NCBI GenBank assembly: GCA_036652735.1
Contig: JAVVVI010000014.1
Location: 19,658 to 51,657 of the forward strand
DNA: 32,000 nucleotides
From: Lachnospiraceae bacterium
GTDB lineage: Bacteria; Bacillota; Clostridia; Lachnospirales; Lachnospiraceae
Direction: 5' to 3'
Positions 21,069 through 29,100 of the stretch are shown one piece after another. A program made the translations under genes and the position numbers. Position 1 is the first letter of the stretch. Each line of letters begins with the position of its first letter. Below the pieces are notes generated by a model that saw only the letters and a program-made list of their open reading frames with translations, was not told where the DNA came from and did not search any database.

Positions 21069-22442
21069 ATGAAAAAATTAGCAAGAATTATTGCGTTCGT
21101 ATTGATTGCAGCTCTATTGATAAAACCTCTTCCCACCTATGCGGAGGTAATGGCAGAATCCATTGTATTGAATTCAATGGATGTAAAAGAAATTACGCTC
21201 TCAGAGCTAATTCCGGAGGGAACAACAGAGGTCTATTGGAATATCGAAAATCAGATACCTGCCAAGGGGGAAGGTGAAGTTGTTCAACTATTAGATTCTG
21301 AGCAGCTTGTGGTGCCGGTACCGGCACTCTATCCCCTTGTTAATGGCGCGAGCAGTGTTACTTTAATGGGAATCAACCCGGGAAGTGCAGAACTTGTTTG
21401 TTATCGTCTAAAGGATGAGATTAAGGAAATAATCAAAACGTATAAAATTACTGTTGAGAATAAGTTTACAAGTATAGAATTTAAACAGAAGTCTTATTCG
21501 TTATATATGGGAGCGACTATGAACTTTGTACCAATTGTAAAGAGCAGCAACCCGTCGGTTCCATTAAGCTATTCCTCGTCAAATTCTAAAATTGCCAGAA
21601 TCGATCAAAATGGGACGATTACCGCATTAAAAAGCGGAGTAGTAACCATTACATGTAAAGCATTGGATGGAAGTGGCGCCATAGGAAAATGCAAATTAAA
21701 AGTACTCAAAGAAAAAAAGGGATGGCATGTTACAAAATCAGGAAAAAAATATTATGTGTATTCTTCCGGATACCGTGCAGCAGGGTATCATAAAATGGGA
21801 GATGCTTATTACTATTTTGATCCGAGCACAAGATATATGGAGAAAAATCAATGGGAATATGTAACCATTCAGGATCAAAAATATAAATTAAGATTTGGAC
21901 CAAAAGGGAAGCAGATGCAGGATGTATCAGAATTAATTGGCAAACAGCCTTCTTATCGTTTAAAGGTAAATACCACAACGAATATGGTTACCGTGTATGC
22001 AAAAGATGGTTCCAATGGATATATTCTTCCGGTTCGTGCAATTCTCTGTTCCACAGGAAAGACGGGAACACCAACCAAGGAGGGGACGTTTACATTGAAA
22101 AAGGTAGCACCTTGGCACACCTTGTTTGGAAATGTGTATGGTCAGTATTGTACCAGAATTACAGAGGGCTACCTGTTCCATTCTGTATTTTATTCCGTGC
22201 TTGGAAATCGGAATACCTTGTTTGTGAATGAATATCGAAAATTAGGTGAGAAAGCATCTCATGGCTGTGTGCGTGTAACGGTAGGAGATGCAAAGTGGAT
22301 TTACGATAACTGTATAGGCAGTAAGGTTACCGTTTATGCCAGTGAAAAAAGAGGACCATTGCTGAAACCAAAGGTACCGCCGGTTATTGTATTGCCCGGT
22401 GGTGGCGGCTGTGATCCCACAGATCCGGAGATTAAGAATTAA
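21069..22442 (+). CDS. L,D-transpeptidase (YkuD domain) with Big_2 and cell-wall-binding repeat domains
   Basis: Signal peptide, a Big_2 Ig-like domain (..IARIDQNGTITALKSGVVTITCKA..), Tyr/Gly-rich wall-binding repeats (GWHVTKSGKKYYVYSSG.., GDAYYYFD), and the C-terminal YkuD catalytic motif HSV....SHGCVRV. Confidence 0.85.
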   Translation: MKKLARIIAFVLIAALLIKPLPTYAEVMAESIVLNSMDVKEITLSELIPEGTTEVYWNIENQIPAKGEGEVVQLLDSEQLVVPVPALYPLVNGASSVTLMGINPGSAELVCYRLKDEIKEIIKTYKITVENKFTSIEFKQKSYSLYMGATMNFVPIVKSSNPSVPLSYSSSNSKIARIDQNGTITALKSGVVTITCKALDGSGAIGKCKLKVLKEKKGWHVTKSGKKYYVYSSGYRAAGYHKMGDAYYYFDPSTRYMEKNQWEYVTIQDQKYKLRFGPKGKQMQDVSELIGKQPSYRLKVNTTTNMVTVYAKDGSNGYILPVRAILCSTGKTGTPTKEGTFTLKKVAPWHTLFGNVYGQYCTRITEGYLFHSVFYSVLGNRNTLFVNEYRKLGEKASHGCVRVTVGDAKWIYDNCIGSKVTVYASEKRGPLLKPKVPPVIVLPGGGGCDPTDPEIKN

Positions 22443-23232
22443 GAGATGCTAAGTAGTTCAGGTAGTGGGTGGAAAGTTTGATGTTCGTATAGGTTTCCGC
22501 ATATTTTTTGGAACTATAATCAGGGATATAATTTATAGAATAATTTTTTTGAATACCGGCAGCCTTTGCAAGATCAACAGCTTTGTTGTATGCAATGGCT
22601 GCTGTTATTTCATCACGATAAGTACCAATCAGATAATTGCCATTAATATGAATTTTTACATTATAAAAAGTGTTTCCTTTTTTAGAGATTTTAGTAACAC
22701 CAAAATAGGAATTCAAAATTTGAATATTAGAATAACGAAAATCCGTAGAATCTCCATTCACAAAGCGGTAGTCTTTATTTTCCACACCGTAATTAAGAAT
22801 ACCATATCTGGAAAGAATGGTTACCTGCATTCCATAATCACTTACAAATAAATGTCCCTGTCTTCGCATGATCTTATGAGATGCATAATAAAAGAGATCA
22901 TCACGATCAAATTTCAGTTCATCCTGTTCGGAAATGAAGTATTGAAAAAAATTACGGCGTAAATAAATAGGGGTTTTAAAATACAAGGCATTGTCCCTAA
23001 AATTAAGTAAGGAAATGATTTTATCATGGGAAAGCTGAAAGGAGAGGGCGGTAAAATTTTCAATGGTAATGGAAGTATCAGATACTATTTTTTTTGCATC
23101 AAAATAAGCTTGCGAAGCTTCTTCTTCTGTGAAAAAACTTCCCAGGCTTATGTGTTTTTGATGATAAGTAATATTGGAACGATAGTATGTGGTTCCATCT
23201 TTTTTCTTTGCTAAATATACTCCGGCTAACAT
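22432..23232 (-). CDS. AP2-domain DNA-binding protein: AP2 / degenerate HNH_3-like core / AP2
   Basis: N-terminal AGVYLAKKKDGTTYYRSNITYHQKHISLGSFFTEEEASQAYFDA and C-terminal FGVTKISKKGNTFYNVKIHINGNYLIGTYRDEITAAIAYNKA both fit the AP2 pattern (GV..y.a.I...gk...LG.f.t.eeAa.AY). The middle TILSRYGILNYGVENKDYRFVNGDSTDFRYSNIQIL aligns to HNH_3 (hRLv..f......V.H.dG...NN...NL), with the catalytic His replaced by Phe. Confidence 0.6.
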   Translation of the reverse strand: MLAGVYLAKKKDGTTYYRSNITYHQKHISLGSFFTEEEASQAYFDAKKIVSDTSITIENFTALSFQLSHDKIISLLNFRDNALYFKTPIYLRRNFFQYFISEQDELKFDRDDLFYYASHKIMRRQGHLFVSDYGMQVTILSRYGILNYGVENKDYRFVNGDSTDFRYSNIQILNSYFGVTKISKKGNTFYNVKIHINGNYLIGTYRDEITAAIAYNKAVDLAKAAGIQKNYSINYIPDYSSKKYAETYTNIKLSTHYLNYLASLNS

Positions 23233-24125: not shown

Positions 24126-24503
24126 TTATCTCCCTTCGATTCTTGCATTAACAATTGCTTCTATCTGAGAAATGCTAAAAGGTTTCTGAACAAAATCCTT
24201 TGCACCTGATTCAATTGCGGATTTTAATTGTGATTTGGTACCGACAGAAGAAAGCATTACAATATAGGCAGTTGGGTCAAATTCAAAAATTTGTTTTATA
24301 ACAGCAATGCCATCTAATTTTGGCATTACAATATCTAAGAAAACAAGGTCAGGTTGGTGTTCTTTAAACAGTTCAACGGCACGCTGGCCATTATCAGCTT
24401 CAAAAAATATAGTACACCCCAAAGAAACAAGAACATCATGTATTTGTTTACGCGCTAAAATGGAGTCGTCACTAATTAAAACTTTCATTTCATTTAAGTT
24501 CAT
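24126..24503 (-). CDS. Single-domain CheY-like response regulator (receiver only)
   Basis: Intact receiver signature: DD (LISDDS), a phospho-acceptor Asp in LVFLDIVMP (position 57 counted from ATG 24503), MLSSVG, and Lys in VQKPF. ATG 24503 sits 6 nt after AGGAGG. The track's ATG at 24509 abuts the RBS. Confidence 0.85.
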   Translation of the reverse strand: MNLNEMKVLISDDSILARKQIHDVLVSLGCTIFFEADNGQRAVELFKEHQPDLVFLDIVMPKLDGIAVIKQIFEFDPTAYIVMLSSVGTKSQLKSAIESGAKDFVQKPFSISQIEAIVNARIEGR

Positions 24504-24549
24504 ATACATCCTCCTTATTTACAGTCAAAAGATGACAATAGTATATATT

Positions 24550-24578
24550 ATAGTACACCTTTTTCAGAGAAGATTCAA
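24550..24578 (-). promoter_or_regulatory. Candidate sigma-A promoter of the receiver / MshEN-CheX / AP2 operon
   Basis: On the - strand, TTGAAT (24573..24578), a 17-nt spacer, then TACTAT (24550..24555, embedded in TACTATAAT), about 45 nt upstream of ATG 24503. Confidence 0.45.
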
Positions 24579-28911: not shown

Positions 28912-29100
28912 AGAAAAAGAATTCCTGGGATGTTCGAGCACCTACTATTTTGAACCTACGTCTATTTTTATGGGAGTCCTAAATTGCTCATTGGATGTCA
29001 AGCCGTAGTAACTGGCGGAAGGCAGAAGATAAAGCTGCGGATACCCACCTAGCTTTGCTAGGAGTCAAAATTGTTAGGAACGGCATTTTGGGTTTTCAAA
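28912..29100 (+). ncRNA. ssrS: Candidate 6S RNA (SsrS-like structured RNA of about 190 nt)
   Basis: There is no credible ORF or RBS here. The 5' and 3' segments pair into a long interrupted rod: 28924..28932 CCTGGGATG with 29084..29092 CATTTTGGG; 28941..28953 with 29065..29078; and 28971..28979 TGGGAGTCC with 29039..29047 GGATACCCA. Internal loops separate these helices. The 5' GAUGUUCG (28929..28936) and 3' CGGCAU (29081..29086) resemble the E. coli 6S termini as I recall them. The ends given are approximate. Confidence 0.55.

Follow-up and report, generated by a model that had tools for sequence, protein, structure and literature searches.

The 32,000-nucleotide stretch of Lachnospiraceae chromosome analysed here (contig JAVVVI010000014.1, positions 19,658 to 51,657; hereafter, the window) encodes on its reverse strand a 266-residue protein (window 22432-23232, ATG start) in which two AP2 modules flank what appears to be a dead nuclease domain of the HNH_3 type. 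We consider it likely that this protein is a vertically inherited descendant of HNH_3-AP2 endonucleases that no longer cuts DNA and instead acts as a DNA-binding protein, probably as a transcription regulator. The family to which it belongs is chromosomal, vertically inherited and conserved across Lachnospirales, and its ex-nuclease domain is under purifying selection rather than decaying. A first-pass annotation of the window, made from the letters alone, had called the same open reading frame (ORF) and proposed an AP2 / dead HNH / AP2 architecture; this is now borne out by profile–profile alignment with hhalign, Pfam matches in relatives, a profile search of the PDB, Foldseek and BLASTP. The protein is basic (isoelectric point 9.15, net charge +7, of which +4 resides in the C-terminal AP2 module), and two NCBI assemblies hold a protein identical to it.

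Domain architecture and the fate of the active site

Searches with the single sequence were uninformative, giving no Pfam match at E ≤ 1 and nothing meaningful from NCBIfam or the PDB; matches came from family-level profiles. PF00847 (AP2) is matched by 19 of 30 close relatives at E ≤ 0.1 (best 4.3e-6), and the family profile finds the Arabidopsis WRI1 double-AP2 crystal structure in the PDB (E 1.1e-4) with both modules aligned, the match on the C-terminal side spanning residues 173-242. At the other end of the protein, residues 4-49 are matched by PHROG 99 ('HNH endonuclease') via its AP2 part (E 5e-9). For comparison with genuine HNH_3-AP2 endonucleases, a reference alignment was built from Bacillus phage Staley gp77 as the seed; its AP2 part pairs in hhalign with residues 14-52 (probability 97.8, E 1e-12) and with residues 175-221 (probability 98.2, E 3.6e-14), and the AP2 modules of the family are also mutually related (probability 96-98.7). 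Local trimming of the alignments was needed here; hhalign with the whole alignments gave only a match to a third AP2 module, which is described below for a sister clade.

The AlphaFold model computed from 57 diverse relatives (predicted local distance difference test, pLDDT, 94.2; predicted template modelling score, pTM, 0.77) gives both modules the AP2 fold, a three-stranded antiparallel β-sheet lying on one α-helix: strands 5-9, 15-23 and 26-33 with helix 36-51 in the N-terminal module, and strands 179-184, 187-195 and 199-205 with helix 208-224 in the C-terminal module, which contains the invariant motif AAIAYNKA. An earlier model, computed from 30 close relatives, had left residues 110-168 below a pLDDT of 50, and this was cured by adding the Cellulosilyticaceae clade. 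The top Foldseek matches of the model in the PDB are the plant AP2 domains of TEM1 and WRI1 (probability ~1.0). Taken together, the relatives' own matches and the profile–profile and PDB-profile scores place the protein in the AP2 family (PF00847).

There is good evidence from sequence comparison for common descent of the middle domain with HNH_3, albeit under the Pfam threshold for membership. Three of the 30 close relatives match Pfam HNH_3 at E ≤ 0.1 (best 0.019), as does, among 10 distant relatives, P0122 (E 0.071), while P0133 lies beyond that cut-off (E 0.14); the latter two matches, which are those with known coordinates, fall on the RFVNGDSTDFRYSNIQIL motif. Residues 56-235 give one colinear alignment with full HNH_3-AP2 proteins (119 columns, probability 97.8). 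When the middle domain alone (~99-176) is set against the HNH part alone, hhalign returns a score of 25.6 over 78 columns (P 5e-4, probability 30.6), compared with a mean of 11.3 (standard deviation 2.2, maximum 19.8) for 200 column shuffles of the HNH alignment and with 12.9 for the reversed alignment; the kinship with AP2 and HNH claimed at the outset is supported by profile alignment of both parts. BLASTP aligns residues 85-221, the AP2 module included, with an intact phage HNH_3-AP2 protein from IMG/VR (E 4e-8) that itself exceeds the Pfam HNH_3 gathering score (34.9 bits). Additionally, Foldseek against viral models yields 33 matches at E ≤ 1e-3 (best 1.3e-10, 130-330 aligned columns), many of which carry names of giant-virus and phage HNH enzymes, homing endonucleases or AP2 proteins, the rest being unnamed; with those phage enzymes that are 140-170 residues long, the alignment takes in nearly the whole target, and hence must include the HNH part.

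The correspondence with HNH_3-AP2 proteins extends to individual residues: F108-D109-x-x-D112 aligns with V18-D19-D20-x-D22 and is conserved on both sides, R142 aligns with the 'M-H-R' motif (the invariant His of which is Ser or Arg in the present family), N159-G160-D161 with D-G-N, and N169-I170 with the conserved N76-L77. Moreover, the modelled β-hairpin 155-157/170-172 corresponds to the ββ element of HNH.

The catalytic positions, by contrast with these, are occupied by other residues. R156-F157 stands at the position of the catalytic dyad D63-H64, and D164-F165 at that of the NN pair N71-N72, such that the structural Asn is gone; both changes, the first His to Phe157 and NN to Asp164-Phe165, had been noticed in the first reading and are reproduced in the profile alignment. 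Among the 57 relatives, position 157 is F in 52, and T, M, C, L and H occur once each; the residue before it is variable, and the sole relative bearing His has Arg there, so that a D-H dyad is found in none of the 57 and the orthologues can be said to keep the His-to-Phe change. Position 165 is likewise F in 38, Y in nine, L in nine and M in one. Beyond N169-I170, the alignment can be continued only with a 17-residue gap, where the enzymes carry an α-helix with the invariant, metal-binding N85: eight residues (170-177) lie between N169 and G178 of the AP2 module, compared with about 25, N85 included, in true HNH_3-AP2 proteins. Indeed, in the AlphaFold model no helix follows the hairpin, and residues 173-178 pass directly into the AP2 module, which opens at G178-V179. 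To judge from these alignments, three hallmarks of the ββα-metal active site (the general-base His, the structural Asn and the metal-binding helix) are missing, and the predicted loss of nuclease function is more thorough than a point substitution, going beyond the two replacements on which inactivation was originally proposed; the protein most likely can no longer cut DNA.

Conservation and chromosomal inheritance of the family

Conservation is highest in the HNH-like segment (residues 104-176), with a mean top-residue frequency of 0.83 in Lachnospiraceae and 0.65 across the order; the corresponding values are 0.72-0.74 and 0.51-0.58 for the AP2 modules, and the linker (residues 53-66) falls to 0.38 in alignment A1 and 0.23 in alignment A3. 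Nearly as conserved as the HNH-like segment is the subdomain formed by residues 67-103 (helix 69-81, strands 89-91 and 95-101), in which N77, Y90, F96 and Y98 are invariant; it matched no known family.

A 90%-clustered protein database holds 6007 relatives at E ≤ 1e-3. The best 120 of these are almost all 263-280 residues long and, wherever a source names them, are called 'hypothetical protein'; the family is covered by no Pfam or NCBIfam model, and our literature searches found no paper on it. In a scan of one genome per species, relatives occur in at least 592 species genomes. Nearly all of the best 80 are labelled Lachnospiraceae or its genera (including Roseburia, Agathobacter, Lachnobacterium, Pseudobutyrivibrio, Blautia and Petralouisia), and the best 80, like all the named relatives, belong to Lachnospirales. 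Across genera, the relatives share 53-65% of residues with the window protein, a range close to that of the neighbouring citrate synthase (59-69%). A sister clade of 343-372 residues, the named members of which are Cellulosilyticaceae (Cellulosilyticum and Sporanaerobium), carries a third, C-terminal AP2 module; this is the most canonical of all (hhalign probability 98.7 against phage AP2), and in one such protein, P0161, its Pfam AP2 match reaches 39.1 bits and so exceeds the gathering score (33.3). Two orthologues of this clade (L092 8001-9074 and L093 8001-9038) have genes for GGDEF-domain proteins within 8 kb.

The phage, intron or intein setting and the sporadic spread of homing endonucleases were not seen in the loci inspected: in all of them the orthologues are flanked by housekeeping genes, and their position is conserved. 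The same holds for the window itself, a piece of housekeeping chromosome of ~37% GC with genes for MetRS, a YkuD L,D-transpeptidase, citrate synthase, cytidine deaminase, phosphoenolpyruvate carboxykinase (PEPCK), SpoIID and 6S RNA. A tblastn search of 50,697 phage records returned three matches at E ≤ 1e-3, all of them short 'UNVERIFIED Bacteriophage sp.' entries from faecal metagenomes; the two such records that were inspected are bacterial chromosome, with aconitase-family, LysR, LeuRS, citrate synthase, thrC and MCP genes. In IMG/VR, a family member occurs in one of 2.9 million contigs. The first-pass annotation had placed the gene outside any phage or intron and regarded it as domesticated, and both points are sustained, the former by the housekeeping flanks and the near-complete absence of the family from phage collections, the latter by those flanks together with the spread over at least 592 species genomes and the citrate-synthase-like identity.

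The single IMG/VR contig (IMGVR_UViG_3300003472_000044, 1-8517) has the AP2 gene and a host leuD-like gene at its edge, followed by genes for an ERF-family recombinase and a helicase; it appears to be a prophage flank or junction, hinting that in some Lachnospiraceae prophages integrate close to leuD. As a caution, the two phage-labelled records MT837267.1 (L099) and MT836856.1 (L100), each titled 'UNVERIFIED: Bacteriophage sp.', are pieces of Lachnospiraceae chromosome and could mislead work on phage association.

Predicted role and alternative explanations

The characterised AP2 domains of the plant proteins ERF and WRI1 are sequence-specific DNA binders. Nearer to hand, AP2-domain proteins of Bacillota phages (CasPR) have been found experimentally to be sequence-specific transcriptional repressors (bioRxiv 10.64898/2026.02.23.707548). 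Our best inference, by analogy, is that the window protein acts as a sequence-specific DNA-binding regulator. A phage-type HNH_3-AP2 homing endonuclease would have become a chromosomal gene, losing the residues required for cutting and keeping its AP2 modules. The two AP2 modules would recognise a bipartite DNA site, the geometry between them being fixed by the rigid, highly conserved middle domain; the ex-nuclease domain would be retained as a scaffold, or as an extra surface for contacts with DNA or protein. In this way the protein would, most probably, regulate transcription; in this genome only, its expression would be coupled to that of a CheY-like receiver and an MshEN/CheX-like protein predicted to bind cyclic di-GMP (c-di-GMP).

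A number of observations weigh against this interpretation. At the positions where AP2 domains usually contact DNA through Arg and Trp, the alignment with WRI1 gives Lys and Tyr, and hence neither DNA binding nor its specificity should be assumed. Of the exaptation as a transcription factor that had been proposed at the outset, domestication stands, and the transcriptional part is put forward by analogy, no DNA target, binding site, operator or regulon having been found for the protein: an expectation-maximization motif search over the orthologous upstream regions revealed no operator and a single shared feature, an extended -10 element. As regards ancestry, the HNH_3 matches of all relatives lie under the Pfam gathering score and the window protein has no Pfam match; the Foldseek search of the PDB with the whole-length model returned AP2 domains only and no solved HNH structure. 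Lastly, so strong a conservation within the ex-HNH domain points to a function beyond that of a scaffold.

It is possible, though we judge it improbable, that the inactivated HNH module has been repurposed as a sensor of a ligand or partner, or as a reader of DNA structure, and that the protein is a lineage-defining master regulator of Lachnospirales. Were this so, its regulon might be, for example, a sporulation, motility or c-di-GMP/CheY-linked programme, and a bacterial homing endonuclease would have become a core transcription factor independently of plants and apicomplexans, with its ex-catalytic domain still at work.

We also regard as unlikely, albeit deserving of consideration, a role in which the protein binds DNA as a nucleoid-associated or chromosome-organising factor, or as a site-specific factor in replication, segregation or sporulation-linked DNA handling; here, the dead HNH hairpin might provide structure-specific or minor-groove contacts. 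The family is near-universal, uniform in length and highly conserved, as a housekeeping factor would be, and its orthologues typically have a strong AGGAGG ribosome-binding site and their own extended -10 promoter, TATGATATACT, of constitutive appearance. That no conserved operator was found upstream of the orthologues, that the ex-nuclease domain is the most constrained part and that the protein is basic would all fit such a role. However, the AP2 domains characterised so far, namely those of plant ERF, WRI1 and phage CasPR, bind specific sequences, and this speaks against such a role.

A further proposal, likewise deserving of consideration, that the window protein is the DNA-binding output of the CheY-like receiver and MshEN/CheX-like pair, converting phosphorylation or c-di-GMP state into transcription, seems to us quite unlikely. 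Its appeal comes from the local arrangement, in which the receiver gene is separated by 3 nt from the MshEN/CheX-like gene and the latter by 8 nt from the AP2 gene, with one promoter-like site and no terminator between the three genes; within the window, the AP2 gene has no recognisable Shine-Dalgarno sequence. A three-gene operon is therefore likely in this genome, to judge from its layout, and the pair is found within 5 kb of the AP2 gene in ~60 of 80 Lachnospiraceae loci, mostly upstream and on the same strand. In most of these, however, an opposite-strand thrC gene, sometimes together with a gene for an SleB-like hydrolase, parts the pair from the AP2 gene, which has its own promoter. In four of the 80 loci, the pair lies downstream on the other strand, and in several it is missing; direct adjacency is confined to the window and one other locus (L086). 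In two Cellulosilyticaceae loci, the AP2 gene is monocistronic and divergent from a transketolase gene, with the pair not nearby. Moreover, the whole block is syntenic housekeeping DNA (SpoIID, PEPCK, citrate synthase, the receiver pair, thrC, the AP2 gene, leuCD-like genes and a LysR gene), and the closeness of the AP2 gene to the pair may simply be inherited gene order. We infer that the three-gene operon is a secondary, lineage-local rearrangement and that, in most relatives, the AP2 gene is monocistronic with its own σA-type promoter. Accordingly, the description of the gene as the distal member of a signalling operon, given in the first-pass annotation, fits this genome and L086, but neither most Lachnospiraceae, where thrC intervenes and the gene has its own promoter, nor Cellulosilyticaceae; a conserved CheY/CheX signalling operon was rejected on these grounds.

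Very little probability attaches to the idea that the protein is still a nuclease with a non-canonical site made up from D109, D112, R124, Q136, D154, N159, D164, R166 and N169. Many acidic and polar residues of the middle domain are indeed invariant or nearly so, within the most conserved part of the protein; however, F108-D109, D112, N159-G160 and N169 align with non-dyad positions that are conserved in true HNH_3, and so look like inherited structural features. An active nuclease was rejected, given the loss of the general base, of the structural Asn and of the metal-binding helix; nor does the domain contain an invariant His, since the sister clade has Tyr in place of both H119 and H127. 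Finally, we hold it to be next to impossible, and have rejected, that a mobile homing-endonuclease gene or a prophage is decaying here, its remains devoid of host function: among characterised proteins, the nearest to this one are HNH-AP2 endonucleases of phages and giant viruses, but the reading frame is intact and the length uniform in thousands of relatives, the window holds only housekeeping genes, and conserved sequence and synteny, an identity across genera comparable to that of citrate synthase and the near-complete absence of the family from the phage collections searched together exclude decay.

Relation to known systems and further features of the locus

The phage HNH_3-AP2 homing endonucleases (PF13392 with PF00847), such as Bacillus phage Staley gp77, Escherichia phage phiEcoM-GJ1 gp36 and the IMG/VR protein at L102:8001-8486, share with the window protein the same order of elements, namely, a VDDxD-type N-terminal subdomain, an 'HR' helix, a β-hairpin (xDHxxGxxxNNxxxNL in the enzymes) and an AP2 module with an AAxAY(N/D)K helix. 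They differ from it in the active site, where the window protein has x-F for the D-H dyad, D-F for NN and a deletion of the helix bearing the metal-binding Asn, and in lacking the N-terminal AP2 module and the 67-103 subdomain that it has gained. Furthermore, the phage genes are inserted among phage replication genes, whereas the present family is chromosomal, syntenic and vertically inherited. By sequence, then, the family is predicted to descend from phage HNH_3-AP2 endonucleases, yet not to be a functional member of them; functionally, its closest counterparts would be AP2 DNA-binding factors.

Among the latter, the plant double-AP2 factors (WRI1, PDB 7wq5; AP2/ANT group) likewise have two AP2 modules in one polypeptide, and the best PDB sequence and structure matches belong to this group. 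An origin of plant AP2 from HNH-AP2 endonucleases has been proposed (Magnani et al. 2004, as cited in PMC3022922 and PMC5318435), and the same route from endonuclease to DNA-binding protein is implied for the window protein. The plant proteins, however, have discarded the HNH domain, whereas the present family retains it in inactivated form as its best-conserved region; the two modules are spaced by a folded domain of ~125 residues in place of the short linker of the plant proteins, and the contact residues Arg and Trp of the latter are replaced. The present case is bacterial and would be an independent event. The phage CasPR proteins (CapR with AP2) and the AP2-only proteins of Bacillota prophages resemble the window protein in having AP2 without a nuclease, and their sequence-specific binding is experimental; CasPR, however, combines AP2 with a zinc-binding CapR domain in a phage-borne accessory protein, as opposed to two AP2 modules and a dead HNH domain encoded by a host core gene.

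A closer parallel in respect of the active site is CDS0037 of Staphylococcus phage vB_Sau_JK1 (L089 697-1458, + strand; 253 residues), which is annotated 'HNH endonuclease' and in which an HNH_3-like N-terminal part precedes two AP2 modules. Like the window protein it is without the D-H dyad, having L-K-K instead, from which it follows that nuclease-dead HNH-AP2 proteins already exist in phages. Unlike the window protein, it is encoded in a phage replication module, has the order HNH-like/AP2/AP2 and keeps the helix after the hairpin; it was not among the phage tblastn matches at E ≤ 1e-3. For related genes of Staphylococcus phages, the annotation reads 'AP2 domain-containing protein' or 'pathogenesis-related transcriptional factor'.

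What is new, therefore, is not a kind of system but a large, vertically inherited Lachnospirales family that has neither a curated model nor a functional name from the labelling sources, and in which a dead nuclease domain has been kept, and is the most constrained part, alongside an added N-terminal AP2 module and 67-103 subdomain. Lachnospiraceae are among the most abundant butyrate producers of the human gut, and a testable annotation is thereby offered for an abundant gut-bacterial protein. For the AP2 factors of plants and apicomplexans, a path leading from endonuclease to DNA-binding protein has been proposed; the family would exemplify it in bacteria, unusually so in that the dead nuclease domain persists under strong constraint, and it raises the question of the role played by an ex-catalytic HNH fold within a DNA-binding protein. 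The features of the gene and of the two genes upstream of it are collected in Table 1.

Table 1. Window coordinates of the AP2 gene, the predicted parts of its product and the neighbouring upstream features
Feature	Window position	Strand	Basis or remark
Whole coding sequence	22432-23232	(-)	AP2 / family-specific subdomain / HNH_3-like relic / AP2 / helical tail
N-terminal AP2 module, residues 1-52	23077-23232	(-)	hhalign, PHROG 99, AlphaFold
Variable linker, residues 53-66	23035-23076	(-)	Lowest conservation in the protein
Family-specific subdomain, residues 67-103	22924-23034	(-)	Conservation, AlphaFold
HNH_3-like relic, residues 104-176	22705-22923	(-)	hhalign, BLASTP, weak Pfam HNH_3 matches, conservation, model
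RFVNGDSTDFRYSNIQIL motif, residues 156-173	22714-22767	(-)	Profile alignment, conservation
C-terminal AP2 module, residues 177-226	22555-22704	(-)	hhalign, PDB profile, Foldseek
Helical tail, residues 227-266, and stop codon	22432-22554	(-)	ORF call, AlphaFold
MshEN/CheX-like gene, 293 residues	23241-24122	(-)	8 nt upstream of the AP2 gene; NF053729, 4.6e-19; CheX-like C-terminus
CheY-like single-domain receiver	24126-24509	(-)	First gene of the local three-gene unit
Promoter-like site	~24540-24567	(-)	Upstream of the receiver gene

The MshEN/CheX-like protein has two MshEN-type c-di-GMP-binding motifs and a CheX-like phosphatase domain, and, judging from these, could be a c-di-GMP-controlled phosphatase of phosphorylated CheY; MshEN-CheX fusions have been listed, but not characterised (PMC5013675). 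The pair that it forms with the receiver is present also in non-motile genera such as Blautia. PADLOC gave no defence match for either the AP2 gene or the MshEN/CheX-like gene.

Upstream of some orthologues there are palindromic leader elements. A 20-nt motif, CACATNNNTGYAWAGTAAYC, lies 30-90 nt upstream of the gene, just past the -10 element, in ~11 of 82 orthologues (L015, L016, L018, L020, L027, L030, L031, L048, L059, L065 and L082), and holds a short palindrome with compensatory changes (GCAC/GTGC versus ACAT/ATGT); no further copy with two or fewer mismatches was found in ~0.96 Mb of loci. At the same position, another clade (L009, L010, L012, L019 and L022) has the palindrome GTAT(7)...A(7)TAC. 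Each of the two may be a candidate operator or an RNA hairpin. As a sign of autoregulation, CACATNNNTGYAWAGTAAYC was not accepted, being confined to a lineage and to this minority of orthologues; 7-mer counts directed at an autoregulatory operator returned only the promoter elements of the divergent gene.

Two further features of the window may be recorded. The 3' end of the AP2 gene overlaps that of the convergent gene for the YkuD/Big_2 L,D-transpeptidase by 11 bp (window 22432-22442), which leaves no space for a terminator of either gene. Additionally, a full-length 6S (SsrS) RNA is present between the PEPCK and SpoIID genes, at window 28919-29098 on the forward strand (RF00013, 72.3 bits, E 1.3e-12).

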